Source: Candidatus Aenigmatarchaeota archaeon
Lineage (GTDB): Archaea > Aenigmatarchaeota > Aenigmatarchaeia > QMZP01 > QMZT01
Direction of reading: 5' to 3'
Length of the DNA: 64,000 nucleotides
NCBI GenBank assembly: GCA_011772645.1
Contig: WVZE01000001.1
Span: 17,888 to 81,887, forward strand
Position numbers and translations under genes: made by a program. The first letter of the stretch is position 1, and the number at the start of each line of letters is the position of its first letter. The notes under the pieces were generated by a model. That model saw nothing but the letters and a program-made list of their open reading frames with translations, ran no database searches and was not told the origin of the DNA. Positions 18,113-54,981 of this stretch are shown piece after piece.

Positions 18113-18144
18113 GAAGAAATCTGGAATTATGTACTAAAATATAT

Positions 18145-18168
18145 ATGTTTAAACATATGTTTAAACAT
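18145..18168. promoter_or_regulatory. Two directly abutting copies of the 12-bp palindrome ATGTTTAAACAT (TATA/BRE-like), 33-56 nt upstream of the LTD gene start
   Basis: The exact sequence 'atgtttaaacatatgtttaaacat' is present. The same GTTTAAAC(AT) core recurs 30-50 nt upstream of other starts (18788..18799, 26431..26440, 46420..46427, 57409..57429). Confidence 0.45.
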
Positions 18169-18193
18169 CAATAGATAAATTTTGGGGTTTCGG

Positions 18194-18748: not shown

Positions 18749-18787
18749 CTAATTTTAAATAAAAATCGAAGTTATTTAAGCGTTTTT

Positions 18788-18799
18788 ATGTTTAAACAT
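18788..18799. promoter_or_regulatory. ATGTTTAAACAT palindrome, putative TATA/BRE of the CBS/zinc-ribbon gene
   Basis: An exact 12-bp palindrome lies 40-51 nt upstream of the start at 18748. Confidence 0.4.
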
Positions 18800-18816
18800 T
18801 TCTATTGAAATCTATA

Positions 18817-21429
18817 TTACCCGTTCTTTATCTTGGCCTGCGCTGCAGCGAGTCTAGCAATCGGGACCCTGAAAGGCGAGCAGGAAACGTAATCAATTCC
18901 CAACTTATGGCAGAACTCGACAGAACTCGGTTCTCCGCCATGTTCACCGCAAATCCCTATTTCTATCTTGGGGTTTGTTTTTTTTCCAAGTTTCACGCAT
19001 GTCTCCATGAGCGATCCCACTCCCTCCCTGTCCAGAACTTGAAACGGGTCTTTCTTCAAAACACCCTTCTCTATGTATTTTGGTATGAATTTGCCGGAAT
19101 CATCCCTTGAAAATCCATAAGTGGTCTGGGTCAGGTCGTTCGTTCCGAACGAGAAGAAATCCAGGACCTTCGCCAGCTCATCCGCCACAACACACGCCCT
19201 CGGGAGTTCAATCATGGTTCCTATCTTGTATTTTACGTTAACCCTTGATTTTCTGATCAGGTCCTTCGCTATCCTTTCTATGACCTCCCTCATGAACTTT
19301 GCTTCTTCAAGACTCCCCAGAACAGGGATCTCTATTTCAGGGAAGGCCCTGCCTCCTGACCTGTTGATCTTGATTGCCGCCTTTATTATTGCCTCAACCT
19401 GCATTTCAGAGATCTCAGGATATACCACCCCCAGCCTGCAGCCTCTGAAACCCAGCATGGGGTTAAACTCGCTCAAGAAGTTTATTTTCTTTTTGAGTTT
19501 TTGATAGCTTACCTTCATCTTCCTTGCAAGTTTTCTTATCTCCTTATCTTCCTTTGGAAGGAATTCGTGAAGCGGCGGGTCAAGCAGACGTATGGTAACG
19601 GGTAAACCGTTCATTTCTTTGAATATCCCCAGGAAATCATTCATCTGCATGGGAAGGAGTTTCTTAAGCGCATTCCTTCTTCCCTTTTCGTCTTCGGCAA
19701 GTATCATCTCCCTGACGGAATCTATACGGCCTCCCTCAAAAAACATGTGCTCCGTTCTCGCCAAGCCGATTCCTTCAGCCCCAAAGTCTTTCGCCCTTTT
19801 CGAATCCTCAGGCGTGTCGGCATTGGTCCTTACTCCCAGTCTTCTGAATTCATCGACCCATTTCATTAACGTTCTGAACTCACCTTTCATTTCAGGATCC
19901 ACAACAGCGATTTTACCCTCAATCACCTCTCCCGTGCCCCCGTCCAGCGTGATCCATTCTCCTTCCCTAATTTTAATTTCCCCTGCCGTCAATGTCTTCT
20001 TCTTCTCATCAATAATGATGTCTTCACAGCCTGCCACACAGCAGATCCCCATTCCACGCGCAACCACAGCGGCGTGTGACGTCATTCCTCCTCTCGCTGT
20101 AAGTATTCCCTTCGAGACGGACATGCCCCCGATGTCTTCAGGGGAAGTCTCTTCCCTTACGAGCACGACATCCTTCCCTTTGGACGCAAGCTCTTCTGCC
20201 CTGTCTGCTGTGAAACACACTATTCCCACCGAGGCCCCAGGCGATGCCGGGAGTCCTTTTGCTATTGCCCTTGCTTTCTCCTTTTCCTTTGGGTCAAGCT
20301 GTTTATGAAGCAAGTGGTCAAGCTGAGCGGGATCTATCCTCATTATAGCCTCTCTTTTGCTTATCATCCTCTCTTTCACAAGATCTACCGCAATTTTCAC
20401 CGCGGCCTGCGCTGTTCTCTTTCCTGCTCTTGTCTGGAGGACGTACAGTTTTCCCTTCTCTATCGTGAATTCCAAATCCTGCATGTCTCTGTAGTGTTTA
20501 TCAAGCAGCTTGTAAACCTTCATTAGCTTCCTGTAAGCTTTCGGAAGGTCTTTTTTTAGGTTAAATATGGGTTTCGGTGTTCTTATTCCCGCAACGACGT
20601 CTTCACCCTGGGCATTAATGAGGTATTCGCCGTAGGGCGTGTTCTCGCCGGTGGAAGGATCTCTTGTGAACCCCACTCCGGTTGCAGAGTCTTTCCCCAG
20701 GTTTCCGAAAACCATTGCCTGAATGTTGACCGCTGTTCCCAGATCTTCTGGTATGTTGTTGAGTTTCCGATAGGTTCTCGCGCGTTTGTTGTCCCAGGAA
20801 CTGAAAACAGCATCTATTGACATCTTCAGTTGTTTCTTGGGGTCTGAAGGAAATTCCTTGCCTGTCTCTCTCCTGACGAGATTTTTGTATTCACTAACGA
20901 TAATTTTAAGTTCCTCGACTTTAAGGTCGGTGTCTTTTCTGCCCCTCTTGCGTTTGTTAAGGATTTTCTCGAACTTTGCATGATCCACCTCAAGAACCAC
21001 GTCACCAAACATCTGTATGAACCTTCTGTAGGAATCCCATGCAAACCTGGGATCTCCGCTTTCCTTTTCTATCCCCTTCACCGTCTTATCGTTTAGGCCG
21101 AGGTTAAGGACGGTGTCCATCATGCCCGGCATGGAGACGGGAGCACCGGATCTCACAGAAATTAACAGCGGTCTTTTTTCGTCCCCAAATTTCCTTTTCA
21201 TTTTTCTTTCCAATTTCTTTAGGTTTGATTCAACCTGTTTCTCAAGATATCTGGGGTATCTTTTGGTTTTTATGAAATCCATGCACACGCGGGTTGATAT
21301 CGTAAAACCGGGAGGTACTGGCAAACCTATCCTGGTCATTTCTCCCAGGTTCGCTCCCTTTCCTCCGAGCAGTTTTCTGCTTTCCTTCCCCCTTTCCCCG
21401 AAGAAGTAAACCATCTTCATGACATTCAC
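18817..21429 (-). CDS. ppdK: Pyruvate, phosphate dikinase
   Basis: 870 aa. 'LLGGKGANLGEM', the phospho-His region 'GGMTSHAAVVARG' and the PEP-utilising C-terminus 'GIGLARTEHMF...FFSFGTNDLTQ' identify it. Confidence 0.95.
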   Translation of the reverse strand: MNVMKMVYFFGERGKESRKLLGGKGANLGEMTRIGLPVPPGFTISTRVCMDFIKTKRYPRYLEKQVESNLKKLERKMKRKFGDEKRPLLISVRSGAPVSMPGMMDTVLNLGLNDKTVKGIEKESGDPRFAWDSYRRFIQMFGDVVLEVDHAKFEKILNKRKRGRKDTDLKVEELKIIVSEYKNLVRRETGKEFPSDPKKQLKMSIDAVFSSWDNKRARTYRKLNNIPEDLGTAVNIQAMVFGNLGKDSATGVGFTRDPSTGENTPYGEYLINAQGEDVVAGIRTPKPIFNLKKDLPKAYRKLMKVYKLLDKHYRDMQDLEFTIEKGKLYVLQTRAGKRTAQAAVKIAVDLVKERMISKREAIMRIDPAQLDHLLHKQLDPKEKEKARAIAKGLPASPGASVGIVCFTADRAEELASKGKDVVLVREETSPEDIGGMSVSKGILTARGGMTSHAAVVARGMGICCVAGCEDIIIDEKKKTLTAGEIKIREGEWITLDGGTGEVIEGKIAVVDPEMKGEFRTLMKWVDEFRRLGVRTNADTPEDSKRAKDFGAEGIGLARTEHMFFEGGRIDSVREMILAEDEKGRRNALKKLLPMQMNDFLGIFKEMNGLPVTIRLLDPPLHEFLPKEDKEIRKLARKMKVSYQKLKKKINFLSEFNPMLGFRGCRLGVVYPEISEMQVEAIIKAAIKINRSGGRAFPEIEIPVLGSLEEAKFMREVIERIAKDLIRKSRVNVKYKIGTMIELPRACVVADELAKVLDFFSFGTNDLTQTTYGFSRDDSGKFIPKYIEKGVLKKDPFQVLDREGVGSLMETCVKLGKKTNPKIEIGICGEHGGEPSSVEFCHKLGIDYVSCSPFRVPIARLAAAQAKIKNG

Positions 21430-22954: not shown

Positions 22955-24388
22955 CTATCCCTTCAGAACTCCTACCGGAACCGTTCGTGCAACCTTCAAA
23001 GAGATTCCCATGCCGTGAACACTCTCTATCACGTCATCCACGTTCTTGTAAGCCCCCGGGGCTTCCTCTGCCAAAACCTTTGGGTGGGTTGACTGTGTGA
23101 CAATTCCTTTATTCGCAAGTTCTTCCTTGACCTTTCCACCCCAAAACTTACGAATGGCAGCGTGTCTCGACATAGCGCGCCCCGCTCCGTGAACCGTTGA
23201 CCCAAACGTTTTCTCCATTGATTTGTCTGTTCCCCTGAGAATATAAGAAGAGGTTCCCATAGTTCCCGCAATAAGGACCGGGTCGTCTGGGAAGGAACGT
23301 GTCGAACCCTTCCTGTGAACGAAAAGCTTTCTCTTTTCCCCTTCCACAACATGATTCTCGAGCTTAACCACGTTGTGGCATAACCCGTATATCGTGTTTA
23401 AATCCATCGATTCCCAGTCCTTTCCGAATATCTTTTTAAAGGTTTCGCGTATCCAGTGTGTCATCACGATTCGGTTTGTGAAGGAATAGTTCACAGCGCA
23501 CACCATTGCTGAAAAATAATCCTTCCCTTCCTGTGATTTCGAAGGGGCGCACGCAAGCTGACGGTCAGGCAGCCAAATGTTGTATTTTTTTACCGCTTGT
23601 TCCTGAATCTTCAGGTAATCGCTCGCTACCTGATGTCCAAGCCCGCGGGAGCCGCAGTGAAGCATGATCAAGATCTGATCGGGATTTTGAATTCCCCATT
23701 TGTTAGCGAATTCCTGGTCATAGATATCGGAAACCCTCTGTATCTCGAGGAAATGGTTTCCTGCTCCAAGGGTTCCCAGCTGTTGCAGACCGCGTTTCTT
23801 GGCGAGATCGGAAACTTTCGAGGAATCCCCTCCTTCCATATGTCCTCTCTCTTCCATGTTTTCCCTGTCCTTCGAAACCCCGTATCCGTTCTCTATGGCC
23901 CAGTCTATTCCTTTTTCGAGGACCTGATCTAACTGATCATTCGTTAGCTTCAATCTCCCTTTCGCTCCCACCCCGCAGGGTATGTTCTTGAACAATGTTG
24001 AAACCAACTCGTTCAATTTCGGTTTAATCTGGTCGTAAGTGAGGTTCGTTCTTATGGAATTCACCCCGCAGTTTATATCGAAACCGCAGAGTCCCGAGGA
24101 TATTATTCCATCTTGGGAATCGAACGCGCTCACAGCCCCCATCGGAAGACCGTATCCCCAGTGCATGTCCGGAAGCCCTATAACCGGCCGGATCACTCCG
24201 GGGAGGCAAGCGACGTTCGTCAGCTGCTGGATAGCGGCATCTTCTATAGCATCGACTACCCTTTTGTTTCCTATGACCTTCGCGTCCACATTCATTCGTT
24301 CCCTAGATCCCTTGGGAAGAAGCCATTCGTATTCGCCCAACTTTTTCAATTTCTCCTTCATCTCAAACCTCCATTTGACCCGCGACAT
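22955..24388 (-). CDS. rtcB: RNA-splicing ligase RtcB
   Basis: 477 aa. 'PDMHWGYGLPMG', 'DINCGV', 'GAGNHFLE', 'HCGSRGLGH' and 'HGAGR' are canonical RtcB motifs. Confidence 0.95.
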   Translation of the reverse strand: MSRVKWRFEMKEKLKKLGEYEWLLPKGSRERMNVDAKVIGNKRVVDAIEDAAIQQLTNVACLPGVIRPVIGLPDMHWGYGLPMGAVSAFDSQDGIISSGLCGFDINCGVNSIRTNLTYDQIKPKLNELVSTLFKNIPCGVGAKGRLKLTNDQLDQVLEKGIDWAIENGYGVSKDRENMEERGHMEGGDSSKVSDLAKKRGLQQLGTLGAGNHFLEIQRVSDIYDQEFANKWGIQNPDQILIMLHCGSRGLGHQVASDYLKIQEQAVKKYNIWLPDRQLACAPSKSQEGKDYFSAMVCAVNYSFTNRIVMTHWIRETFKKIFGKDWESMDLNTIYGLCHNVVKLENHVVEGEKRKLFVHRKGSTRSFPDDPVLIAGTMGTSSYILRGTDKSMEKTFGSTVHGAGRAMSRHAAIRKFWGGKVKEELANKGIVTQSTHPKVLAEEAPGAYKNVDDVIESVHGMGISLKVARTVPVGVLKG

Positions 24389-33949: not shown

Positions 33950-35314
33950 ATGGATAACGTTCTTAACAAGGTTTTGAAAAAAATAACACCCAGCAACAGG
34001 GAGAGGGAGGAGCTTTCGGGGGTTCTGAAGAGGTTGGTAGATGCAGCCGAAAGTGTGATAAAACCCATGGGTTTACAAAAAACCATCGCAGGTTCGTTCA
34101 TCCGCGACACCTGGTTAACAGACAAGAAGGAGATAGATCTCTTCATAATGTTCCCTGTTTCTTACCCGAGAGGGGATCTCGAGAAGCTCGGTCTAGAAAC
34201 AGGGAAAAGGATCGTGAAAAAACTTAAGGGTGAATACGAGATAGCATACGCAGAACATCCTTACGTTAGGGGCAAAGTGAGCGGTTTTTCAGTAGACATC
34301 GTCCCCTGTTACAAGGTTAAATCTGCTTCTAAAATAATCTCCGCGGTAGATCGCACGCCGTTTCATAACAGGTATATAGCCGAACATCTGAAGCCTGAAA
34401 TGGCGAAGGAAGTGAGACTCATCAAGCAGTTCTGCAAAGCAATCGATGTCTACGGTTCGGATATACGTACGCTTGGTTTTTCCGGCTACCTATGCGAACT
34501 TCTGATAATAAAACACAGGACCTTCAAAAAACTTGTTCTCTCTGCCAGAAACTGGAAATTCGGGAAATTCATGGATCTGGAAGGTCATTGTTACATAAGA
34601 AAACCAAAGTCCTTTTTCAGAAATCATCCCCTTATTGTTATAGACCCCACGGACCCGAAAAGAAACGTGGCCGCCGCACTCTCGGATGAGAATTTCGTCA
34701 AATTTGTGAAGTCGTGTGAAAATTTCGTGAAAAAACCAAGCGAAAGGTTCTTCAGAAGGGATATGAGAACGATAAAGATCCATGAACTCAGAAGACGCCT
34801 GAAAGCGAGAGGGACGAGGATGTTCGCCATACGTTTCGGGAGACCGAAAGTGGTTGATGATATCCTATGGTCGCAGATGAGAAAAACTTCCTCCAGGCTT
34901 GTTAACCTCCTAAAGGATAACGATTTCGAGATTTTTGATACCTCTGTGTGGAGTGACGAGAAGGATTCGTATCTGCTCTTGGAAATGAAGAGCTGGTTTC
35001 TTCCAAAAATAAGGAGGCTGAGAGGCCCTCCCGTACATTCGAAGAAGCATTCGAAACAGTTCATAGATAAGTATGGGGGGAAGGCTAAGGTTGAAGGCAA
35101 GAACTGGGTGGCCGAAATCGAAAGAAAGTACAGGAAGGTGGAAATCCTTCTGGAAGATTTTCTGAAAAGGAGTGATAAGCTCCTTCGAATGGATGGCGTA
35201 AGATCGCACATAGCAAAGAGTATTGGGAAGGATTTCGAAATTCTGAGTGGAAGGGGTTTCGAGAGGACAATAAAAAACAGGGATCTTGCAATTTTCCTTA
35301 GGAAGTATTTCTAA
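33950..35314 (+). CDS. cca: CCA-adding enzyme (archaeal class I tRNA nucleotidyltransferase)
   Basis: 454 aa. 'GSFIRDTWLTDKKEIDLFIMF', 'HPYV' and 'VDIVPC...DRTPFH' identify it. Confidence 0.9.
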   Translation: MDNVLNKVLKKITPSNREREELSGVLKRLVDAAESVIKPMGLQKTIAGSFIRDTWLTDKKEIDLFIMFPVSYPRGDLEKLGLETGKRIVKKLKGEYEIAYAEHPYVRGKVSGFSVDIVPCYKVKSASKIISAVDRTPFHNRYIAEHLKPEMAKEVRLIKQFCKAIDVYGSDIRTLGFSGYLCELLIIKHRTFKKLVLSARNWKFGKFMDLEGHCYIRKPKSFFRNHPLIVIDPTDPKRNVAAALSDENFVKFVKSCENFVKKPSERFFRRDMRTIKIHELRRRLKARGTRMFAIRFGRPKVVDDILWSQMRKTSSRLVNLLKDNDFEIFDTSVWSDEKDSYLLLEMKSWFLPKIRRLRGPPVHSKKHSKQFIDKYGGKAKVEGKNWVAEIERKYRKVEILLEDFLKRSDKLLRMDGVRSHIAKSIGKDFEILSGRGFERTIKNRDLAIFLRKYF

Positions 35315-37350: not shown

Positions 37351-40188
37351 ATGAAATCCGATAAAGAGATCAAAAAGGAATTTCTCCCGAAGTTCTGGAA
37401 AAATCCAGATAGATACTATGCAACAGGCGTTTTGAAGGAAGAGGGATTTGTAAGAAAGATCTGCATCATCTGTAAGAAGCCGTTCTGGAACACGAACGCT
37501 GAAAGGAGGGTGTGTGGAGATCCCCTGTGCAGCGGGGAAGGTTTCGGTTTCATAGGCAAAACTCCTGCAAAGAAAGAGATGAGCTACATAGATGTGTGGT
37601 TGAAGTTCGCGAGGATGTTCAGAAAGCTTGGGTATACGCCAATCAAGAGATATCCTGTTGTTGCGAGATGGAACCCAACGATGGAATACACGAACGCCTC
37701 GATCTCTGCCTTCCAACCATACGTGATTTCAGGGGAAGTGGAACCGCCAGCAAACCCTCTCGTTATCCCCCAGTTCTGTCTAAGGTTTAATGATATCGAC
37801 AATGTTGGCGTCACTCAATCGCACAACACGGGCTTCGTGATGATAGGTCAGCATTCGTTCGTCCCTCCTGATAAATGGGACTTGGAGAGGGTTTTCAGTG
37901 ACATACATCTCTGGCTTAGGAAAGGGATTGGTCTGGAAAATTCTGACATAACGTATCACGAAGACGCATGGGCAGGAGGAGGGAATTTCGGGTCGTGCAT
38001 GGAATTCTTTTCAAAAGGCTGCGAACTTGGAAACCAGGTTTACATGCTTTACGAACAAAGACCTTCGGGTATAAAGGAACTGGGAATAAAGGTTCTGGAT
38101 ATGGGCATGGGGCAGGAAAGAAATGCATGGTTCACCCAGGGGTGTGAGACGATATACGATGCGACATTCCCGACTGTAGTCAAAAAACTCCTTTCAAAAA
38201 CGGGTTTGAAAATTGACAGTGACATTATGAGGAGATATATCCCATATGCAGGACTTCTCAATCTTGACGAGACAGAGGACGTCGAAAAATCTTGGAAACT
38301 CGTGGCGAAAAGGGTCGGGATTGATGTCAAGGATTTGAAGGATTTTATGGTTCCGTTATCCGGTATGTATTCCGTCGCGGAGCATGCAAGAAGTCTATTG
38401 GTGGCCCTGGCGGACGGTGGTTTACCTAGCAACGTGGGAGGGGGTTACAACCTGAGAATGCTGTTCAGGAGAGCAAAACTTTTCGTGAACAAACACGACT
38501 GGCCGGTGGATATCCCGGAAGTTTGTGAATGGCATGCACATTACCTGAAACCGATATTCCCAGAGCTCGTGAAAAATCTGGATGGCCTGAGAAACATACT
38601 TGAAGTTGAGGGGAAAAAGTATGAAAACACGAAGAAAAAGTCCGTAAGAATTGTCAAAAAAATATTGAAGGGGGAGGTGAGCGAGAAGGAGCTCTTGAAA
38701 CTTTACGACAGTCACGGAATACCGCCTGAAATAATAAGGGAGGAATTCGAAAGGAGGGGAAAGGGAATAAAAATACCTGATGATTTCTATTCAAGGGTTT
38801 CTGAGCTTCACGAAAAGAAAGAACGGGTAACGGAAACCGAGAAGGTCGAAATCCCATTTTCCGGTATCCCAGAAACAAAAATTTTGTATTACAACAACTA
38901 CAAAACACTCAGTTTCGAAGCGAGAGTTTTGGAGGTATCGGGGAACTTTGTTGTCCTCGATCAGACCGGGTTCTACCCAACCTCTGGCGGTCAGCTGCAT
39001 GATTTAGGAAGTATAAACAGGGAAAGGGTTCTGGATGTTTTTAAGCAGGGGGGGATGATCGTACATAAAATGAAGAAGGGACACGGCATGAAAAGGGGAA
39101 TGAAGGTTAAAGGGGAGATCGATTGGCTGAGAAGATTGAAACTCTCTCAACAGCACACGGCAACACATATAGTAAACGCCGCTGCCAGAAAGGTTTTAGG
39201 GAAACATATAAATCAGGCAGGAGCGAAGAAGACTGAAGAACGTTCTCACCTGGATATAACTCACTATCAACCCGTTAACGTCAGGGAGCTGAAGGAGATA
39301 GAGAACGCGGCGAATAAAATCGTGGGAAGGGGGATAAAGATTGAGAATATGCTGATACCAAGAAACGTCGCCGAGAAGAGGTTCGGAATGAGAATCTATC
39401 AGGGCGGGGCAGTCCCCGGAAGGATGATAAGGGTGGTTAACATTCCTAGAGTGGATGTGGAAGCGTGCGGAGGGACTCACTTGAACAACACGAAAGAGGT
39501 TGGTAAGATAAAGTTAATAAAAACGAGCAAAATTCAGGATGGTGTTGTGAGAATTGAGTTTACAGCGGGGGAGGAGGTGGAAAGAATTTCAGGGGAGGAG
39601 AATGAAATTTTTGAAATTGTCTTAAAGAACCTGAATGAATTGGTGGAACTTGATGGAAAAATTACCGACATCTCCAAACAGCTAAGGGAGTGTTCGGAAT
39701 TCTTCTCTGTCCCCCTTAAACAGATAGGGAAGACTGTTGAAAAGTTCGTGAAAGAAGCATTGGAGGACAGCAAAATTTTGAAGATGAGTCTGGCTAAAAA
39801 GAGGGTGAAAACACTGAAAAAGGCGTGCGAAACCGTTTTTAAAATATGGAAATCCCAGAAAAAGGAACTGGAAAATATGAGGATAAAAAGGGCTGGTTCT
39901 GAAATAAGAAAACTCCTGAATAAAGCGAAAAGGGAAAGGATATTCGAGATCGTGGATATGAGCAGAAAGGAGATGATAAAGACCGCTGATCTGATAGTTT
40001 CATCCCACCCGAAATTAACGGTTATCCTGATCAACAAAAACGGGGATGTTGTGGGGATGAGTAAAACTAAGGACATAACCAAGGAGCTAAGAAAATTCTG
40101 CAGAAAATACGGGGGTTCCGGAGGCGGGAAGGGTTCTCTTGCCCAAGGAAAAATCAACCTCTCAAAATTAAAAAGAGGTAAGAAATAA
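37351..40188 (+). CDS. alaS: Alanine--tRNA ligase
   Basis: 945 aa. The editing-domain motifs 'HTATH' and 'CGGTH' are present, with a DHHA1-like C-terminus ('GGSGGGKGSLAQG'). Confidence 0.95.
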   Translation: MKSDKEIKKEFLPKFWKNPDRYYATGVLKEEGFVRKICIICKKPFWNTNAERRVCGDPLCSGEGFGFIGKTPAKKEMSYIDVWLKFARMFRKLGYTPIKRYPVVARWNPTMEYTNASISAFQPYVISGEVEPPANPLVIPQFCLRFNDIDNVGVTQSHNTGFVMIGQHSFVPPDKWDLERVFSDIHLWLRKGIGLENSDITYHEDAWAGGGNFGSCMEFFSKGCELGNQVYMLYEQRPSGIKELGIKVLDMGMGQERNAWFTQGCETIYDATFPTVVKKLLSKTGLKIDSDIMRRYIPYAGLLNLDETEDVEKSWKLVAKRVGIDVKDLKDFMVPLSGMYSVAEHARSLLVALADGGLPSNVGGGYNLRMLFRRAKLFVNKHDWPVDIPEVCEWHAHYLKPIFPELVKNLDGLRNILEVEGKKYENTKKKSVRIVKKILKGEVSEKELLKLYDSHGIPPEIIREEFERRGKGIKIPDDFYSRVSELHEKKERVTETEKVEIPFSGIPETKILYYNNYKTLSFEARVLEVSGNFVVLDQTGFYPTSGGQLHDLGSINRERVLDVFKQGGMIVHKMKKGHGMKRGMKVKGEIDWLRRLKLSQQHTATHIVNAAARKVLGKHINQAGAKKTEERSHLDITHYQPVNVRELKEIENAANKIVGRGIKIENMLIPRNVAEKRFGMRIYQGGAVPGRMIRVVNIPRVDVEACGGTHLNNTKEVGKIKLIKTSKIQDGVVRIEFTAGEEVERISGEENEIFEIVLKNLNELVELDGKITDISKQLRECSEFFSVPLKQIGKTVEKFVKEALEDSKILKMSLAKKRVKTLKKACETVFKIWKSQKKELENMRIKRAGSEIRKLLNKAKRERIFEIVDMSRKEMIKTADLIVSSHPKLTVILINKNGDVVGMSKTKDITKELRKFCRKYGGSGGGKGSLAQGKINLSKLKRGKK

Positions 40189-41223: not shown

Positions 41224-42861
41224 TCAGTATTCGGGCATTCCGCCCATGCCTCCGGGTGGCATCGGAGGTTGTTTCTCTCCGGCCCCTGCCGAGATCATGT
41301 CGTCTATCCTGAGTATCATTTCAGCGACCTCGCTCGCGCTCTTCAACGCCTGGAGTTTTATTTTCAGAGGTTCTATCACACCAAGATTCATCATGCTGTG
41401 CACGTTTCCCGTGAACACGTCCAGGCCCGTTGCTGTCCTTTTCTTGTCGTGTTCTGATCTGAGCTGAGCCAGCTTGTCTATGGGATCGAGACCTGCGTTT
41501 TCGGCCAGGCTCTTCGGGACGATCTCCATCGCCTCTGCGAATGCATTGACAGCGAGCTGTTCCCTTCCTTTGAACGATTCCGCGTATTTCCTCAGCTGTT
41601 TCGCCACTTGAATCTCGACTGCTCCACCGCCCGGAACTATCTTTCCGAGTTCCAAAGCAGCGGCAACTCCTTTGATCGCGTCTTCCATCGCTCTCTCCAC
41701 CTCATCAACCACGTGCTCGCTTCCCCCGCGGATGAGGATCGTCACAGCTTTCGGATCTTTACACCTCTCAACGAATATCATCTCGTCTCCGGAGATTTTC
41801 TTTTCCTGCACGACCCCGGCGTATCCCAGGTCGTTCCTTGAAAGTTCCTTCACGCTCGTGACTATCTTTGCTCCGGTTGCCCTTGTGAGCTTTTCCATAT
41901 CGGATTTTTTCACCCTCCTCGCTGCAAGTATGTTCGCCTTGGCCAGGTAATGCTGAGCGACATCATCTATCCCCTTCTGGCAGAAGACAACGCCCGCCCC
42001 TGACTTTATAACCTTATTGACCATGTCCTTGAGGCTCTTTTCCTCCTCGTTGAGGAAGGCCTGGAGTTTTTCAGGGGAATCTATGCTTATCTTGGCATCT
42101 CCCTCCAGTTCCTTGACCTCCAGAGCGGAATCAAGCAGAGCGACCTTAACCTTCTCGAGTTTCTTCGGCATCCCGGAATGAACAACTTCCTTGTCAAGAA
42201 CTATTCCTTCAATGAGTTCTGTATCGCTCATGGATCCCCCCTGTTTCTTTTCGATCTTTATGTTTTCCGTGTCCATCTCGTTCGTTTTCCTGTCGGCTAT
42301 CCTCGTGACCGCTCTGACGGCAAGGTCTGTCAGCTTTTCCGAGGCACGTTCGGCCGACTTGCCTGTCATCGCTGTATTGGCGATTCTTTTCAGACTTTTC
42401 TCATCCTTTATCGCAACTTCATACGAAAGCTTTTCAAGTATCTCCAGCGCCCTGAGCTTCGCGAGCCTGAAACCCTTTGTTATAACGGTGGGGTGGATCT
42501 GTTTTTCCAGCAGCTTTTCTGCCTCCTTAAGAAGTTCTCCTGCTATTATGACTGCCGTTGTTGTCCCATCACCAACGGCTTCATCCTGTGTTTTAGCGAC
42601 TTCTGCCATCATTTTTGCCGCGGGGTGTTCTATCTGCATCTCGTTTAAAATGGTCGCTCCGTCGTTCGTTATCGTCACGTCTCCCAAAGAGTCCACCAAC
42701 ATCTTGTCCATTCCCTTGGGACCCAACGTTGTTCGGACAGCGTCAGCCACGAGTTTAGCAGCTGCTATGTTGTTCTTCTGCGCTTCCTTTCCCTTTGTTC
42801 TAAGGGTTCCTTCCGGGAGTATAAATACGGGCTGAACCTGTTGACCGCCCATTCCATTCAT
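41224..42861 (-). CDS. ths: Thermosome subunit (group II chaperonin)
   Basis: '[12 protein letters not shown]', 'ITNDGATIL', 'VGDGTTTAV' and the C-terminal 'GGMGGMP' tail identify it. Confidence 0.95.
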
Positions 42862-43005
42862 AACATCACCTCTCTACCTATCGATTCAATGATAAGGATA
42901 GAATTATATATATGGAAAGGTTATTTAAATGTTTCCCCAGGCAATTAATTTAAAACAGAGCAAAATAACATGTAACGACTCGAATTTGCATTCCGAGTCT
43001 TCCAT

Positions 43006-43172
43006 GGGCTCGTAGCTCAGCCTGGTTAGAGCGTCGGTCTTATATGTCCGACAGGCGTGATGTCTGTTAAGCTTTGGCCAAGAGAGCCGGAGGTCTGGGG
43101 TTCGAATCTGGAAACCACCAGCGGGTTTCCAGCCATCCTGCCACCAATGTTTCGGAAATCCCCACGAGCCCA
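43006..43172 (+). tRNA. tRNA-Ile (anticodon UAU) with two introns: 40 nt in the anticodon loop (37/38) and 52 nt in the T-loop (near 59/60)
   Basis: The exons read GGGCTCG TA GCTC AGCCTGGTTA GAGC G TCGGT CTTATA [43045..43084] A GCCGG AGGTC TGGGG TTCGAAT [43108..43159] CCCCA CGAGCCC A. The acceptor, D and T stems are perfect. The anticodon stem has two terminal G-U pairs. The body closely resembles archaeal tRNA-Ile. The exact splice junctions are ambiguous by 1 nt. Confidence 0.75.
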
Positions 43173-43206
43173 CTCATTTTAAAAACAAAGATCAAAATAA
43201 ACTCTT

Positions 43207-44457
43207 ATGAAGATATTCTCTGACCTTCACATCCACTCAAGGTTCTCCAGAGCGACCAGTAAGGAACTGAACATAGAAAATCTCGTGAAATACGCAAAAA
43301 TGAAAGGTTTGAATCTTCTTGGTACGGGAGATTTCACGCATTCTCTCTGGCTGAAAGAGTTAAAGGAGGATCTCAGGGAAGACGGTTCCGGGATTCTTAA
43401 AAGCAAGGGGGGTTTTAGCTTCCTGCTCTCGGCAGAGGTTTCAAACATCTATACCCAGGACAACAGGCAAAGGAGAATCCACAACGTAATTCTCGCCAAG
43501 GATTTCGAAACGGTTGAGCAGATAAATGATTGGTTATCCAAGAAGGGGAGGCTTGATTACGACGGCAGGCCTATATTCGGTTTCACATGCACAGAACTCG
43601 TAGAGAACATCGTGGGTATATCAAAGGATTGTATGATAATACCAGCCCATATCTGGACACCCTGGTTTTCGCTGTTCGGTTCGAAATCCGGATTTGATCG
43701 CATTGAGGAGTGTTTTCAGGATCAAACCAAAAACATATTCGCCCTGGAAACCGGGCTGTCCTCTGACCCTGAGATGAACTGGAGGCTGTCCTCCCTGGAC
43801 AGGTATGCTCTGGTTTCATTTTCCGATCTTCATTCGTTCTGGCCATGGAGAATCGGAAGGGAAGCCACGGTTTTTGAGATGAAGGAACTGACATATGATA
43901 ATTTGGTAAAAAGCATAAGGACGAAAGAGGGTTTGGTGGAGACAATCGAAGTCGATCCTTCCTACGGTAAATATCATCACGACGGACACAGAGGTTGTGG
44001 GGTTTCGCTGAGTCCTGAAGAGGCAAGGAATTCGAATAACCTCTGCCCGGTTTGTAAACGCCCGCTGACGATCGGGGTTTTACACAGGGTTGAGGAACTC
44101 GCCGACAGGGATAAAGGATTCGTTCCGAAGGATTCAAAACCCTTCCGTTCGCTGATCCCGCTGTCCGAGATCATATCGATCGTCCTTGGCTCACCGGTAA
44201 ATTCGCGGAGGGTGTGGGAGGAATACAACAAGCTTGTAAACGCCTTTGGATCCGAGTTCAACGTCCTGATGGAGGCGGGCAGAGAGCAGTTGATTAACAT
44301 CTCGAATGAAAGAATGGTTGATCTGATCTTGAATGCAAGATCCAGGAACATAAGAATAAATGCGGGTTACGATGGGGTTTACGGAGAACTCGTCATGAAG
44401 GAAGACGAAACCGAGGGGTTGGAAAAACCCCAGAAAACCCTGAAAGACTTCAGTTAG
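43207..44457 (+). CDS. endoQ: Endonuclease Q (PHP-like N-terminal domain plus zinc finger; cleaves 5' of deaminated bases)
   Basis: 'DLHIHSRFSRATSK...GLNLLGTGDFTH', 'IPAHIWTPW', 'GLSSDPEM', 'SFSDLHS', 'GKYHHDGHRGC' and 'CPVCKRPLTIGVLHRVEELAD' are collinear with Pyrococcus EndoQ, as I recall that sequence. Confidence 0.75.
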   Translation: MKIFSDLHIHSRFSRATSKELNIENLVKYAKMKGLNLLGTGDFTHSLWLKELKEDLREDGSGILKSKGGFSFLLSAEVSNIYTQDNRQRRIHNVILAKDFETVEQINDWLSKKGRLDYDGRPIFGFTCTELVENIVGISKDCMIIPAHIWTPWFSLFGSKSGFDRIEECFQDQTKNIFALETGLSSDPEMNWRLSSLDRYALVSFSDLHSFWPWRIGREATVFEMKELTYDNLVKSIRTKEGLVETIEVDPSYGKYHHDGHRGCGVSLSPEEARNSNNLCPVCKRPLTIGVLHRVEELADRDKGFVPKDSKPFRSLIPLSEIISIVLGSPVNSRRVWEEYNKLVNAFGSEFNVLMEAGREQLINISNERMVDLILNARSRNIRINAGYDGVYGELVMKEDETEGLEKPQKTLKDFS

Positions 44458-45392
44458 AACCCTGTCACCGTCAGGGAGGTCGCCGCATCTGTAAAGTATT
44501 CGTATGTCGCCCTTATCTTTAAGGTTTTTTTCAGTATGTTGATTCCTGTCCATTTATCGCCTTCGGAAAACAGTGAAATCTCCCCGTCGCAAACCACAGT
44601 TCTCGACCGGCCTTCCCATAAATCAACTTCGTCGTACATCCCCACTTCGCAGTCCTTCAGGTTCATTCCGGATTCTGGGTCTGTCTCCAGAAAGACCTTG
44701 TTCCAGTTTACCGAATCATCACAGGTTGGATAGCAGGCAACTCCTCCCCCGGCGTTTTCGATGGATATGGATATCGGAAACTCTACTTTGTTTGTGTCTT
44801 CGATGTATCTGACAGGGCTCCTCATCTGTATGCTGAGTTTGACCGGCCCTGCCGTGAGGCTGGTGGTTTCACTCGGAAGCGATCTCCCCTGCGCCTGTAT
44901 CGATCTCAATTCGCTCTCTGATATTATCGTAACGGATTTTACTATGTTGCTCTCGTAATCATAATACACCCTCAGGCTGGGGTTGAACGTTATTTTCGAG
45001 TTTCTCGGTATATCCTCGGGTGCGGAACATTTCCATATGCAGGTCTTTGATTCCCCTGTTGTTCCCGCCCGGGGGTCAGGAGCGAGAAACCTTTCTATCA
45101 CTTCCGAGCATTCTGTTTTGCAGGAGATTTCAAGTCCTCTGTTTTCATAGGTGGCTCCTATGTTGGAAAGCTCGAACCTAACATTCCCTGCATCAACAGA
45201 GCCGGTGTTTCTTATCATCAGCTGAAGGTTAAAGGGCTCCCCGGAATACATTTCAGAGGGATTCGATACAAAGCTCTCTATAACTATCCCGTTTCCGGAA
45301 GTTGTTTGCTGTCCCACACAGCCTGATAACAAAACTAAACAAAAAACGAGCAAAGTTAACTGGGCCGGTTTCGTCATAATTTTATATTGCAT
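44454..45392 (-). CDS. Secreted lipobox-type surface protein, paralogue 1 of 4 (two beta-sandwich-like halves)
   Basis: The signal and lipobox are 'LLVFCLVLLSGC'. It shares family motifs with the next three genes: 'GIVIESF', 'IRNTGSVDA', 'LAPDP', 'RVYYDYES', 'ENAGGG' and the C-terminal 'ATYEYFTDAATSLTV'. Confidence 0.6.
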   Translation of the reverse strand: MQYKIMTKPAQLTLLVFCLVLLSGCVGQQTTSGNGIVIESFVSNPSEMYSGEPFNLQLMIRNTGSVDAGNVRFELSNIGATYENRGLEISCKTECSEVIERFLAPDPRAGTTGESKTCIWKCSAPEDIPRNSKITFNPSLRVYYDYESNIVKSVTIISESELRSIQAQGRSLPSETTSLTAGPVKLSIQMRSPVRYIEDTNKVEFPISISIENAGGGVACYPTCDDSVNWNKVFLETDPESGMNLKDCEVGMYDEVDLWEGRSRTVVCDGEISLFSEGDKWTGINILKKTLKIRATYEYFTDAATSLTVTGF

Positions 45393-45407
45393 ACGAGGCT
45401 TTTATCC

Positions 45408-46385
45408 TTATCCGCTCGGCAGAACCCTTATCTGAATGGTTTTATCTATGAAGTAACCATATTCCGCTGTCAGCCTTATGTTCTTCTGGGTCAGCCTTTC
45501 AGGAATCTCGTGGACCTGAATCTTGCAGGAGATAGTCTGGGACTTGCCCATTATCAGCAAGATCTCTTCCGTTTCTTCGCAGCTGCCCTCCTCGAAGTTC
45601 ATTCCTTCGGGCAACTCTATGTATAATCTGAACTGGTTCCACATGGATCCACCTTCTGTGTATTTCCTGCAGCTGTCACTGTTCTCGCAGACCGTTCCCC
45701 CTCCGATGTTATCTATCTTTATGACCATCGGGAACGTCAGGGTTTGTCCGTAGGTTCTTATCGGACTCCTGGTCTCTATGTCCAAGGATACGGGAGAGTC
45801 TGATTCGCTCGTTGTTTCCACGGGCAGGCTTTTGCCCTGGTTCTGGATCACCCTCAGCTCGTCCTTGGGAACGATCGTGACCGTTTTTATGAGGAATGAT
45901 TTGTAATCATAGAAAACGCGAGCCCGCGGTCTGTAATCGGCGTAAAGGCCGGGCGGAACATCGGGGGCGACATACCCCCACGTACATATTTTATCGCTGC
46001 CCTCTATTCCTGCGGACGGGTCCGGAGGCAGCAACACGATACCTCTCTGATCGTATTGGCATTCCCTTTCGTAGGGGAAAACCTCCTGGTTTCTGGGGTT
46101 CTTCCTTGCATCGTCCCTTCCTTTCCACAGCTGATCAAGGCCAAGGAGCTCTGCATAACCGTTCTCCGCTTTCACGCTACCCGTGTTTCTGAATTTAAGA
46201 ACGAAGGTTACCTCCTCATTCGAATACACCTCGCTTAATTCGGGGTCTGTCCTGAAGCTCTCTATAACTATTCCCGATCCGACCGGCGTCTGAGAATCGA
46301 ACGGCACGCCAGGCATCACGCACCCCGAAGCTAGGATTAAAGAAAAGACCATAAAGCCCGAGCAGATAATTTTTTGGCTACTCAT
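45408..46385 (-). CDS. Secreted lipobox-type surface protein, paralogue 2 of 4
   Basis: The signal and lipobox are 'FSLILASGCVMPG'. Family motifs are 'GIVIESF', 'FRNTGSVKA', 'LPPDP', 'RVFYDYKS', 'DNIGGG' and 'AEYGYFIDKTIQIRV'. Confidence 0.6.
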   Translation of the reverse strand: MSSQKIICSGFMVFSLILASGCVMPGVPFDSQTPVGSGIVIESFRTDPELSEVYSNEEVTFVLKFRNTGSVKAENGYAELLGLDQLWKGRDDARKNPRNQEVFPYERECQYDQRGIVLLPPDPSAGIEGSDKICTWGYVAPDVPPGLYADYRPRARVFYDYKSFLIKTVTIVPKDELRVIQNQGKSLPVETTSESDSPVSLDIETRSPIRTYGQTLTFPMVIKIDNIGGGTVCENSDSCRKYTEGGSMWNQFRLYIELPEGMNFEEGSCEETEEILLIMGKSQTISCKIQVHEIPERLTQKNIRLTAEYGYFIDKTIQIRVLPSG

Positions 46386-46419
46386 AATTATATAATTGTC
46401 GAAAAATAAATAAAAAGAG

Positions 46420-46427
46420 GTTTAAAC
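46420..46427. promoter_or_regulatory. GTTTAAAC TATA/BRE-like element upstream of paralogue 2
   Basis: It lies 35-42 nt upstream of the start at 46385 and overlaps the stop codon of paralogue 3. Confidence 0.3.
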
Positions 46428-47402
46428 GAACTCCTCGAATCCTTTGACTGTTATCTGAGTTGCTGCATCCACGTAGTATATGTAACCCAGCTTTATCTCG
46501 AAGTTTTTCTTGACCTTGTTCGTGGGTGGCTGCGTCACTTGGAATTCGCATGTTACGTCCGTGTACTTTCCGTTCCAAACCCTAACGTATCTTCCGAATG
46601 CCGGAGTTGACAGGAATGGCGGCAGGTTTTCATAGATGCCTGTCCCGAATTGGATCTGTCTTGGACAGTCACCGACCGGTATAACACCATCAGGCCATAC
46701 AACCTCGATAGCGACCGGGTAATCCCTTCCGAATATCTGTCCTCCTCCCGTGTTGTCTATCCTTATCTGGAGCTGGAATTTGGATTCCCTCCATTCCCTT
46801 GCCTTCACGAACTGTCCTGTATCAACCGTAACACTCAGCGGGCCGGATGTTAGTACGGTGGCTTCTGTGTCCAGGGTTCCTCCTCCCTGTACCACTCTTC
46901 TGAGTTCCTCGGCCGTCACAAACCACACTGGTTTGGTCGCTCGCGTCTCATAGTAATAGTAAATCCTTGCAATTGGTTCGTATGTCATTCTCTGGTTTCT
47001 GGAAAGTGTTGGTGTTATCACGTCCCAGTCTGCCCTTCCCCTTCCGCCTTCTGTCTGCATTTCCGGATCAGGAGCAAGCAGCAAACCAAGGTCCCTGTAA
47101 ACATCTCCGTACAAATTCCATTCGGTCGTGTCTATTCCTGTAAGCTCCGCGACTGTCGGAGCGTTGTTGTAGTCTCCCCTGTTGACAACTTCCAGATGGA
47201 GACTTACTGGTTCGTCCGATTCGATGGGCGTTGTCTGGCCTAATGTTGGTTGGAAGATTTCAACAAAAATTCCTTGTCCTCCTCCTGTTGCTGGTCCAAC
47301 ACCAGGCATGGTACAACCAGAGGTTACGGTAACTGCAGCAATGAATAACAGCAAAAAGAACTTCACGTTCCTTCCGAATGCTGTTCCCATCATCTTTATC
47401 AT
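46422..47402 (-). CDS. Secreted lipobox-type surface protein, paralogue 3 of 4
   Basis: The signal and lipobox are 'IAAVTVTSGCTMPG'. Family motifs are 'GIFVEIF', 'VVNRGD', 'LAPDP', 'RIYYYYET', 'DNTGGG' and 'LGYIYYVDAATQITV'. Confidence 0.6.
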   Translation of the reverse strand: MIKMMGTAFGRNVKFFLLLFIAAVTVTSGCTMPGVGPATGGGQGIFVEIFQPTLGQTTPIESDEPVSLHLEVVNRGDYNNAPTVAELTGIDTTEWNLYGDVYRDLGLLLAPDPEMQTEGGRGRADWDVITPTLSRNQRMTYEPIARIYYYYETRATKPVWFVTAEELRRVVQGGGTLDTEATVLTSGPLSVTVDTGQFVKAREWRESKFQLQIRIDNTGGGQIFGRDYPVAIEVVWPDGVIPVGDCPRQIQFGTGIYENLPPFLSTPAFGRYVRVWNGKYTDVTCEFQVTQPPTNKVKKNFEIKLGYIYYVDAATQITVKGFEEFV

Positions 47403-47450
47403 TTTAATATTTAACCTGTTACGCTTATAAATTTAATTTGTGTTCAGAAA

Positions 47451-48434
47451 TCAATCCAGCTCGATCTCCGGCTCTATCGTTAATCTGATCTTCTTGGTGA
47501 ATTTGTAGGAATACTTGATTTTCGAGGTGAGCTGGTAGGTTTTCTCCTGGGTTATCCACCCAGGATTTCTTGGTTCTATTTCGCACGAGAATTTCGGCGA
47601 GGTTTTTCCGATAAGTTTCAGTCCTTCTTCATCTATTTTTTCCTTGCATTTTTCACATCCTGTTACCTCCTCTTCGCCTGTTGCCTCACTTTTGGCACAA
47701 CCTATTTCTATATCGTCCTTCACTATCGTATTTCCTTCAAGTTCTCCTCTTCCCCTGTTCTCGACCCAGAAGGTCATCATGCCCTTCCCAGTTGATTTTA
47801 CATCCGCATCCGGTCTTATGTCCACCATTATCGGCTGGTCAGGAGCCTCTATGTACGATTTTACAGGACCTTCGCCCACGACTATGGTTCCCTTCTCGCT
47901 GAACGTCTTGCCCTGGGAAATCAGGTTCTCGAGCTCCTGCTGGTTCACGAAACTCACGGAAGATGTGGTGTGTGTTGTGTATGTATAACTAACAAGAACC
48001 CCGACATCGCAGGGTGTTTTTATCCTCATTGAGTTCGCCTTCATCTTCCAGTCGACTATAGCGGTCGATTGCGGATACATCTTATCGATCGTGCATTTTT
48101 TGTCCTGGAAGCTCCCCCCGGTGCATATGCTTCCCGTTGTTTCGAATATCCCGCAGTCGTCATACAGCTCTATCTCCACGGTTTCCTGTGGGTCGCTCTC
48201 GGGCTTCTGGAGGTTCTGGACGTACGCGCGAAGCGTTAGGGTCTGCCCGGACCTTATCGTGTGGGACGGGATGGCCTGCAGACTCTGTATGAAAACAACG
48301 TCGTGTCTGAACTCCTCCACGTTTGGTCCGAAGAGGTCGGAAATTATTGGTATCCTGAAATCCGTTCCGGGTATTACGCATCCAGAAATCATCAGCAGTG
48401 GTACCAGGAGGGTTATCAGCAAAGGTTTCCTCAT
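47451..48434 (-). CDS. Secreted lipobox-type surface protein, paralogue 4 of 4 (most divergent)
   Basis: The signal and lipobox are 'LVPLLMISGCVIPG'. It has the same length and two-half layout, with 'VSYTYTT', 'QQELENLISQGKTF' and 'VENRGRG'. It is Cys-rich. Confidence 0.55.
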   Translation of the reverse strand: MRKPLLITLLVPLLMISGCVIPGTDFRIPIISDLFGPNVEEFRHDVVFIQSLQAIPSHTIRSGQTLTLRAYVQNLQKPESDPQETVEIELYDDCGIFETTGSICTGGSFQDKKCTIDKMYPQSTAIVDWKMKANSMRIKTPCDVGVLVSYTYTTHTTSSVSFVNQQELENLISQGKTFSEKGTIVVGEGPVKSYIEAPDQPIMVDIRPDADVKSTGKGMMTFWVENRGRGELEGNTIVKDDIEIGCAKSEATGEEEVTGCEKCKEKIDEEGLKLIGKTSPKFSCEIEPRNPGWITQEKTYQLTSKIKYSYKFTKKIRLTIEPEIELD

Positions 48435-53784: not shown

Positions 53785-54981
53785 ATGGCTCAAATTTCTC
53801 TCAACGAGATATTTCAGGGTTATGTTGGAAGGAGAGGCGTGTTCAAAAACAAAGAAACACTATCAATAGCATTCACACCGGACAACATACCACACAGGGA
53901 GGAACAGATAAAACAGTTGGGTATGATCTTGGCTCCGGTGTTGAGAAAGGAGAAACCATCGAACGTTTTTATTTATGGGAAAACAGGGACAGGGAAATCG
54001 TTGTGCGCGAGCCACACAATAAAAAAACTCAGCGACCAAACCAACGGGAAACTGAAAACCATATACATAAACTGTAAGATGAGAAGGGTTTCGGATACAG
54101 AGTATCGCCTGCTCTCACAACTGATATCCTTTTTTGGCGTTGAGGTTCCCTATACCGGCCTCCCCACGGACAGCCTTTATAAAAAGTTCTTTAATCTCTT
54201 GGACCAAGGAGAGGGGAACACCCTCCTGGTTTTGGATGAAATAGACGCCCTGGTCAAGAAGGTTGGTGACGGTATACTTTACAACCTAACGAGAATTAAC
54301 CAAGAACTCAAAAAAACCAAGTTAACGATAGTGGGAATATCAAACAACATATCCTTCATCAACGACATGGACCCGAGGGTTAGATCTTCCCTTTCAGAGG
54401 AAGAGGCCGTCTTCCCGCCCTACAACGCCTCCGAACTGAGAGACATACTCACCGAGAGATCACAGCTTGCGTTCAACCCGGGCACGGTCTCCTCGGGAGT
54501 GATAGAAAAATGTTCTGCCCTTGCCGCGCAGGAACACGGAGACGCAAGGAAAGCGCTTGACCTCTTAAGGGTTGCCGGGGAGGTCGCGGAAAGGATGGGG
54601 AACGAGAAGGTTTTGAAGGAACACGTGGATCTTGCGGAAAAGAAACTGGACACGGACAAGACGCTGGAAATAACCAAAACTCAGCCAAGGCAGTCTCAGT
54701 GCGTTCTCCTTTCCATACTCGAGCTCTTCCGCAAGGGAACGAAGAACACACAGACAGGCGACATCTACGATGTTTATATCCAGATATGCAGAAGGAACAA
54801 TTTGAAGGTTCTAACGCAGAGAAGGGTTTCGGATCTAATTTCCGAACTGGATATGTTCGGGATCGTAAATTCAAAGGTCATCTCCAAGGGAAGGTACGGA
54901 AGAACAAGGGAGATAAAGCTGAATCTTTCGGGTGAGATGATAACAAGGATTGAAAACTTTTTGAAGGAAGAGTTTATTTAA
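53785..54981 (+). CDS. cdc6: Orc1/Cdc6 replication initiator
   Basis: 'PHREEQIKQL', Walker A 'GKTGTGKS' and Walker B 'LVLDEID' are present, with sensor motifs and a C-terminal winged helix. A TATA-like 'ATTTAAAC' lies 23-30 nt upstream, suggesting a near-leaderless transcript. Confidence 0.9.
   Translation: MAQISLNEIFQGYVGRRGVFKNKETLSIAFTPDNIPHREEQIKQLGMILAPVLRKEKPSNVFIYGKTGTGKSLCASHTIKKLSDQTNGKLKTIYINCKMRRVSDTEYRLLSQLISFFGVEVPYTGLPTDSLYKKFFNLLDQGEGNTLLVLDEIDALVKKVGDGILYNLTRINQELKKTKLTIVGISNNISFINDMDPRVRSSLSEEEAVFPPYNASELRDILTERSQLAFNPGTVSSGVIEKCSALAAQEHGDARKALDLLRVAGEVAERMGNEKVLKEHVDLAEKKLDTDKTLEITKTQPRQSQCVLLSILELFRKGTKNTQTGDIYDVYIQICRRNNLKVLTQRRVSDLISELDMFGIVNSKVISKGRYGRTREIKLNLSGEMITRIENFLKEEFI

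Follow-up and report, generated by a model that had tools for sequence, protein, structure and literature searches.

The window analyzed here is a 64,000-nt stretch of contig WVZE01000001.1 (assembly GCA_011772645.1) from a Candidatus Aenigmatarchaeota archaeon, and the element in question is a tRNA gene at 43006–43172, immediately beside a thermosome gene (41224–42861, − strand) that is also found on contig JABAOC010004231.1 (89.9 kb, GCA_012975005.1). Over 99% of its length the window thermosome is 100% identical to a protein labelled “Candidatus Aenigmarchaeota archaeon”, and its best relatives are 73–92% identical to it and, where named, bear that label too; because of these labels, and because the window (G+C content 45%) also carries an archaeal signal recognition particle (SRP) RNA, the host is an aenigmarchaeon of the DPANN archaea (Diapherotrites, Parvarchaeota, Aenigmarchaeota, Nanoarchaeota, Nanohaloarchaeota). 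Judged from its sequence, 43006–43172 is very probably a functional tRNA-Ile(UAU) gene interrupted by two introns. Its parts are as follows, with the splicing motifs written as outer helix (h), bulge (B), central helix (H) and inner helix (h′):

43006–43044, + strand: exon 1, tRNA positions 1–37 (ARAGORN cloverleaf after splicing)
43045–43084, + strand: intron 1, 40 nt, at the canonical position 37/38, hBHBh′ with one mismatch (geometry test)
43085–43106, + strand: exon 2, tRNA positions 38–59 (ARAGORN and orthologue comparison)
43107–43158, + strand: intron 2, 52 nt, at the non-canonical position 59/60 in the T loop, relaxed hBH (geometry test)
43159–43172, + strand: exon 3, tRNA positions 60–73 (sequence and ARAGORN)

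Read directly, the letters of 43006–43172 are those described in an earlier sequence-only reading, which proposed a tRNA-Ile with anticodon TAT at 43041–43043 and a cloverleaf that emerges only when two segments are removed. This was borne out: ARAGORN calls no tRNA in the unspliced 64-kb window, whereas excision of the T-loop segment alone gives a tRNA-Ile(tat) with a 40-nt anticodon-loop intron, and the joining of 43006–43044, 43085–43106 and 43159–43172 gives a 75-nt tRNA with a flawless cloverleaf, again called Ile(tat). The Rfam tRNA model aligned to 43006–43110 scores 18.3 bits (threshold 29), with a 41-nt insert right after ...CUUAUA; standard scans thus miss the gene, as had been foreseen. 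The spliced tRNA has the anticodon UAU and an A as its discriminator, and its CCA end is not part of the gene; it shows a 7-bp acceptor stem, a 4-bp D stem, a 5-bp anticodon stem with a 7-nt loop containing U33, a 5-bp T stem with a GTTCRAAT-type loop, and a discriminator base, as a canonical tRNA does. Exon 1 supplies the 5′ strand of the acceptor stem, the D arm, the 5′ strand of the anticodon stem and the loop bases C32 U33 U34 A35 U36 A37, and so contains the anticodon; exon 2 supplies A38, the 3′ strand of the anticodon stem, the variable loop, the 5′ strand of the T stem and the T loop UUCGAA; and exon 3 supplies U60, the 3′ strands of the T and acceptor stems, and the discriminator A. 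Two broader searches were set aside. The ARAGORN intron search of the whole window returned nothing at default settings and 117 evidently spurious calls at the 80% threshold, which were discarded, and brute-force splicing of all junction pairs followed by ARAGORN was uninformative because, given perfect acceptor, D and T arms, the program accepts nearly any anticodon arm; it was replaced by an explicit test of stem, loop and splicing-motif geometry.

The tRNA resemblance of 43006–43172 is, on comparison with relatives, far beyond chance, because the exons are 89–99% identical in six syntenic orthologues while the introns diverge strongly. The gene order is conserved—a PHP/MJ0043_C gene, the tRNA in the gap, the thermosome (80–92% identical to that of the window), two small open reading frames (ORFs) and the alanyl-tRNA synthetase (AlaRS)—and the gap tRNA is present in 6 of 6 distinct syntenic relatives (L129, L130, L123, L126, L074, and L043), with downstream sequence supporting the shared neighbourhood for L074 and L043, two loci taken from the genome scan described below. 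Spliced, the tRNAs of the six relatives are 98.7, 98.7, 98.7, 97.3, 96.0, and 89.3% identical to that of the window. For intron 1 the values are 75, 65, 85, 70, 44, and 43%; intron 2, at about 50%, is effectively unalignable. At least 37 of the 39 nt of exon 1 are identical across the syntenic orthologues. Exon 2 differs from those of the four closest (L129, L130, L123, and L126) at most at position 43, where the G of the window forms a U27·G43 pair and the A of the orthologues a U27-A43 pair, and exon 3 is unchanged in the five closest, the T arm of L043 being different. An uninterrupted T arm occurs in L043 and in the tRNA-Ile(UAU) of L097 (a 1.1-Mb Aenigmarchaeota contig), which is independent proof that 43085–43106 and 43159–43172 belong together. 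Intronless tRNA-Ile(tat) genes of Micrarchaeota, called directly by ARAGORN, match the spliced product at 85–88% identity, and in them ...CTTATAAGCC... stands without interruption. For 25 distinct spliced sequences RNAalifold gives a single cloverleaf, the same as that of the window tRNA, in which 12 of 21 pairs show compensatory double changes; this support is fully independent for the 10 intronless genes only, the intron-bearing ones having been extracted by a script that required stem pairing. The ARAGORN call, the orthologues and these intronless homologues agree on the isoleucine identity and the TAT anticodon; a ranking of the spliced tRNA against ARAGORN tRNAs of the fetched loci says little about the identity, as those loci were chosen by a UAU pattern.

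In the textbook bulge–helix–bulge (BHB) geometry, each strand of a 4-bp central helix is followed by a 3-nt bulge that is cut after its second base. Where an intron lies at 37/38, the first two bases of the anticodon take part in the central helix (PMC4090602). Seventeen single excisions that restore a 5-bp anticodon stem and a 7-nt loop were scored for this geometry, and only the one joining 43044 to 43085, which removes the 40-nt segment named in the sequence-only reading, combines outer, central and inner helices. It has an outer helix of 5 bp, an inner helix of 3 bp and 3-nt bulges UA/U and AG/A, and 3 of its 4 central positions are paired (C32-G, U33-A, and U34-A), with an A35·C mismatch at the fourth; intron 1 thus falls in the strict hBHBh′ class, slightly relaxed by A35·C. 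The same rule applied to the closest relative, L129, and to nine other archaeal loci gives a perfect CUUA/UAAG central helix, and the set of 22 archaeal genes with introns that were compared has preserved the central helices. A GTG ATG... stretch in intron 1 resembles a C box; a C/D small RNA was dismissed on account of the shortness of the intron. No Rfam family matches either intron.

At the T-loop junction, a direct repeat of AAUC allows five registers that yield an identical product. The 52-nt length and the product given in the sequence-only reading stand, and its coordinates, 43108–43159, are better replaced by 43107–43158, because the 59/60 register is the only one with a bulge-helix motif: an outer helix of 5 bp (the T stem), a 3-nt bulge AA/U and a central helix with 4 of 4 pairs (UUCG/CGGA). 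Intron 2 has no contiguous inner helix (h′ = 0) and lies outside the strict BHB class and within the relaxed hBH class (bulge–helix–loop, BHL), so that, of the BHB motifs expected at the four junctions, the hBHBh′ of intron 1 with its one mismatch and the hBH of intron 2 were found, and the inner helix of intron 2 was not. The intron contains a 9-bp hairpin, CUGGAAACC/GGUUUCCAG. Position 57 of the T loop pairs with its intron partner (G-C, G·U or A-U) in 11 of the 11 two-intron genes that were resolved; a paralogous copy of the intron in a tRNA with a UUCAAA T loop ends in UUUGAAAG, complete copies in tRNAs with UUCGAA have ends of the UUCGAAA type, and the copy in the window tRNA-Ile has the 3′ end UUCGGAAA. 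This covariation between T loop and intron end supports the central helix of intron 2. Position 59/60 is among the known non-canonical sites of tRNA introns (PMC4090602), and an hBH intron at 59/60 of the ARMAN-2 (archaeal Richmond Mine acidophilic nanoorganism 2) tRNA-Cys is cleaved in vitro by the ARMAN-2 endonuclease (PMC3239211).

The codon that a UAU anticodon would read is the commonest isoleucine codon of the window: among 1617 isoleucine codons in 62 ORFs there are 869 AUA, 285 AUU, and 463 AUC, which puts AUA at 54% of isoleucine codons and 44 per 1000 codons. Archaea without tiaS are those with tDNA-Ile(TAT) (PMC3575796, PMC3239211); the ARMAN lineages, for example, have neither TiaS nor tRNA-Ile(CAU) (PMC3239211). 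Pfam detected no TiaS domain in 19 of the 62 candidate window ORFs, a set that includes every ORF of 390–510 aa left without identification by precomputed Pfam matches, no homology search with a TiaS sequence having been made in Aenigmarchaeota, and a custom scan of the window yielded no further tRNA and no other AUA decoder. Because TiaS-less archaea carry tDNA-Ile(TAT), and because the 19 ORFs contain no TiaS domain, tRNA-Ile(UAU) probably replaces TiaS and tRNA-Ile2(CAU) in this lineage, by analogy with those archaea. Nothing relevant on TiaS or agmatidine in the DPANN lineages was found in the literature, and a 2026 preprint on Nanobdellota does not discuss tRNA-Ile(UAU).

A different exon model could give an anticodon other than UAU, and the two candidates that come closest, with junctions 43041/43082 (loop CTTGAGA, anticodon UGA) and 43039/43080 (loop CAAGAGA, without U33), do have 4 of 4 central pairs; they have neither outer nor inner helix (h = 0, h′ = 0), however, and the remaining non-UAU models pair at most 3 of 4 central positions, 6 of the 10 lacking U33. 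With no such model showing a splicing motif, with intronless homologues that read CTTATAA contiguously and with CTTATA/.../A kept in all orthologues, this reading is highly improbable. The idea that the region codes for a protein, the tRNA fold being incidental, starts from an 82-aa ORF at 42925–43173 (− strand), and in L123 a gene caller did put an ORF of 113 aa across the orthologous tRNA. The 82-aa ORF has no Pfam match and lies antisense to introns that even close relatives do not conserve, whereas the tRNA exons are conserved; it is on these grounds spurious, as the sequence-only reading had held, and a coding role can be put close to nil. That the gene is a decaying pseudogene whose precursor is no longer processed would fit its imperfect splicing motifs, namely the A35·C mismatch in the central helix of intron 1 and the loss from intron 2 of the second hairpin found in paralogous copies. 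Yet the exons remain close to those of the orthologues (89.3–98.7% identical when spliced) with all four stems paired, relaxed central helices of 3 of 4 pairs also occur in orthologues and in other DPANN genes, and the window showed no second AUA decoder, so that decay is very unlikely.

Redundancy deserves somewhat more weight, although it too is unlikely: the gene may be real and serve as an extra AUA decoder in a genome that also has TiaS and tRNA-Ile2(CAU). The scan for TiaS took in only 19 of the 62 candidate ORFs, which leaves room for this, but the published archaea that lack TiaS are exactly those with tDNA-Ile(TAT) (PMC3575796, PMC3239211), near-identical exons have been kept in 6 of 6 syntenic relatives, and AUA is the dominant isoleucine codon. 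Several observations weigh against a functional gene that decodes AUA alone. The A35·C mismatch is absent from L129, and intron 2 has a second hairpin that is degenerate beside those of the paralogous copies, so that splicing could be less efficient. No gene for a splicing endonuclease was identified in the window, and the tRNA of the window would be presumed to be the sole AUA decoder on a contig that comes from a metagenome-scale assembly.

If 43006–43172 is a functional tRNA-Ile(UAU) gene, two genes of the window would take part in its maturation:

22958–24388, − strand: RtcB tRNA-splicing ligase (Pfam PF01139, E = 3e-155)
33950–35311, + strand: CCA-adding enzyme (precomputed Pfam matches PF01909, PF09249, and PF21133 of the L001 gene at 17548–18912, mapped to the window)

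Transcription of the tRNA would be driven by an AT-rich promoter box of the gene itself and would include a short leader, and the ends would be trimmed by RNase P and 3′ processing. An archaeal splicing endonuclease of broad specificity would cut both 3-nt bulges of the 37/38 motif as well as the hBH formed by the T-loop UUCG and the CGGA near the 3′ end of intron 2; L3-loop α4-type endonucleases have been reported from DPANN lineages in which many tRNAs are disrupted (PMC5829648). RtcB, whose gene lies 19 kb from the tRNA gene, would then join the three exons, the CCA-adding enzyme, needed because the gene encodes no CCA, would complete the 3′ end, and isoleucyl-tRNA synthetase would charge the product. 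The mature 75-nt tRNA would read AUA, the most used isoleucine codon of this genome fragment, with U34 probably modified in a way that lessens misreading of AUG, and, by analogy with Nanoarchaeum, Korarchaeum and ARMAN, would probably supplant the usual TiaS/agmatidine-dependent tRNA-Ile2(CAU).

The flanks of the gene hold candidate signals for this expression:

42943–42954, + strand: AT-rich box (AATTAATTTAAA), about 52–63 nt upstream of the tRNA (conserved motif)
42977–42999, + strand: hairpin GACTCG...CGAGTC in the presumed 5′ leader (RNAfold)
43177–43180, + strand: TTTT run, 4 nt past the discriminator base (read from the sequence)

The box matches a motif, (A/T)AT(T/A)AATTTAA, that lies upstream at a similar distance in 7 of 7 syntenic loci while its surroundings diverge, and it is the probable archaeal promoter (TATA box and transcription factor B recognition element, TATA/BRE) of the tRNA gene. 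The TTTT run is a probable archaeal transcription stop; T runs also follow the orthologous genes. The leader hairpin folds at −8.0 kcal/mol against a shuffle mean of −3.6 (RNAfold). At the leader position, stronger hairpins of different sequence were seen in L123, L126 and L043, and none in L129, L130 and L074.

The sequence-only reading gave genomically encoded tRNA-Ile(UAU) as known from very few archaea, namely Nanoarchaeum and Korarchaeum. These two are indeed published, tRNA-Ile(UAU) having been found in 2 of 167 surveyed archaeal genomes, that of Nanoarchaeum and that of Korarchaeum, where the gene has one intron (PMC6000648), but the estimate of rarity is outdated: ARMAN-2, -4, and -5 have the tRNA, the ARMAN-2 gene with a 37/38 intron (PMC3239211), and a genome scan found it in at least 46 archaeal species representatives. 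The scan pattern, CGTAGCTCAG N5-8 AGAGC N6 CTTATA, returned at least 120 loci and also matches bacterial tRNA-Ile(UAU), and its counts are lower bounds rather than a census. Among the archaeal matches listed, most are labelled Woese-, Pace-, Micr-, Iain-, Aenigm-, Nano- or Nanohal-archaeota, the remainder being unclassified archaea or labelled Methanosarcinales or Methanobacteriota; of the 46 representatives listed, 42 could be resolved, of which 10 are intronless, 21 contain just the 37/38 intron, and 11 combine 37/38 and T-loop introns. The two-intron layout is common in DPANN archaea, though no description of it was found, and Aenigmarchaeota is one more lineage in which it occurs. One or two introns interrupt the DPANN-like tRNA-Ile(UAU) genes of three metagenome-assembled genomes labelled “uncultured Methanosarcinales archaeon” (L031, L044, and L046) and of one labelled “Methanobacteriota archaeon” (L033). 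Either the UAU solution reaches beyond DPANN, or these labels are mistaken or due to contamination.

The closest published counterpart in kind is the ARMAN-2 tRNA-Ile(UAU) gene (Fujishima et al., 2011; PMC3239211), likewise from a DPANN archaeon, with an encoded UAU anticodon and a 37/38 BHB intron that is cleaved in vitro, in the pre-tRNA, by the ARMAN-2 endonuclease. It differs from the window gene in its phylum (Micrarchaeum rather than Aenigmarchaeota) and in its single, 25-nt intron of strict hBHBh′ class, where the gene described here has a second intron at 59/60 and one mismatch. Korarchaeum cryptofilum and Nanoarchaeum equitans share archaeal tRNA-Ile genes with a TAT anticodon, for which the cited papers describe no T-loop intron (PMC6000648; PMC3575796). 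For intron 2, the counterpart is the 59/60 intron of the ARMAN-2 tRNA-Cys(GCA), which has the same arrangement of T stem, 3-nt bulge and 4-bp helix without inner helix (PMC3239211) but sits in another host tRNA and measures 13 nt, as against 52 nt with a 9-bp hairpin. The combination of a canonical and a non-canonical intron in one gene is shared with the multi-intron tRNA-Pro(UGG) of Pyrobaculum islandicum (PMC4090602).

Intron 2 has a paralogue within the window, in a second hidden tRNA gene:

16434–16605, − strand: tRNA-Arg(CCU) with a 98-nt intron at 59/60 (16448–16545) (Rfam, and ARAGORN after splicing)

Rfam scores this gene at 33.4 bits with its T arm “missing”, and ARAGORN misses it unspliced and finds a perfect cloverleaf once it is spliced. 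Its intron and intron 2 have in common CTGGAAACC...GGTTTCCAGCCATCCnGCnACC...TCGrAAAT; both have hairpin arms CTGGAAACC/GGTTTCCAG, followed by CCATCCnGCnACC and then by a 3′ end complementary to the T loop, the hairpin loop of the Arg copy being longer by about 45 bases. Scanning metagenomes for the intron motif recovered further copies in related populations, and the second hairpin of the family shows covariation. Over its first 40 nt, intron 2 shows 100% identity to the intron in a Leu-like class II tRNA (L133, ~2126, + strand; L135) and 97.5% identity to the one in a tRNA-Gly(UCC) that lies on a different contig from the same assembly (L139, ~8882–9021, − strand); a clear paralogue lies in a Trp-like tRNA of L132 (~2407, + strand), and a second Leu-like copy (L137, ~7123, + strand) is in a gene that also has D-loop and anticodon-loop introns. 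Another intron family, distinct from this one, is common to a tRNA-Ile(UAU) and a tRNA-Gly(GCC): the T-loop intron of the L126 tRNA-Ile is 93% identical over 46 nt to L133 845–890, within the tRNA-Gly(GCC) (L133 735–918). All copies of the intron 2 family seen within tRNAs sit at 59/60, and the closest relatives of the window gene, L129 and L130, have unrelated sequence at 59/60 of tRNA-Ile. Because near-identical introns are found in different tRNAs while the closest relatives have an unrelated intron in tRNA-Ile, the copies point to recent movement or conversion, and it is reasonably likely that intron 2 belongs to a recently mobile Aenigmarchaeota family of 59/60 introns that passes, by movement or conversion, from one tRNA gene to others that differ in specificity. 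Near-identical introns in tRNA genes for different isoacceptors are likewise known from Thermoproteales (summarised in PMC4090602); unlike that case, the family described here is in DPANN, all of its tRNA copies are at 59/60, and the same gene of the closest relatives holds an unrelated intron. No report of such intron sharing in DPANN was found in the literature.

In this lineage, tRNA genes seem to be disrupted as a rule. The tRNA-Gly(GCC) of L133 also has an intron inside the anticodon stem (~29/30), the class II (Leu-like) tRNA of L137 (JABAOF010005275.1, ~6950–7181) apparently has three introns, in the D, anticodon and T loops, and at L139 9801–9911 a T-loop intron interrupts a tRNA-Thr(CGU). 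A partly duplicated copy of the intron 2 element, GAAACCTCCAGCGGGTTTCCAGCCATCC, lies outside any tRNA (L136, ~1827–1870, − strand), at the 3′ end of an ORF for a zinc-ribbon membrane protein that overlaps a ferredoxin-like ORF on the opposite strand.

The window is otherwise rich in genes for translation and tRNA maturation. It also carries those for ribosomal proteins L1, L10 and P1, and its further features include the following:

1840–3030, − strand: Pus10
5115–5387, − strand: archaeal SRP RNA
8521–9990: class II aminoacyl-tRNA synthetase with HGTP anticodon domain
12404–13924: core of phenylalanyl-tRNA synthetase (PheRS)
37351–40188: AlaRS
53785–54978: Orc1/Cdc6 gene

At 44457–48434 (− strand) there are four tandem ORFs of 312–327 aa on the same strand without a Pfam match; they are diverged paralogues of one another (23–36% identity, BLASTP E values from 1e-56 to 1e-4).

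A single 64-kb window thus holds two tRNA genes that ARAGORN misses, one of them sub-threshold in Rfam and the other aligned there without its T arm, and one of the two probably decodes the most frequent isoleucine codon of the genome. The “missing tRNAs” of DPANN metagenome-assembled genomes are, as suspected in PMC5829648, partly artefacts of intron-blind tools. The tRNA-Ile(UAU) gene extends a known pattern, in which UAU takes the place of the agmatidine system and tRNA genes are disrupted, to the Aenigmarchaeota, and it leaves that picture unchanged. The shared 59/60 introns offer recent events for studying how introns of the endonuclease type spread, the mechanism of which is called unknown in PMC4090602. 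If their mobility is real, this lineage would be a live system for the mechanism of BHB-intron transposition, and that mobility may coincide with the wholesale replacement of TiaS by a U34 tRNA where AUA is the main isoleucine codon.

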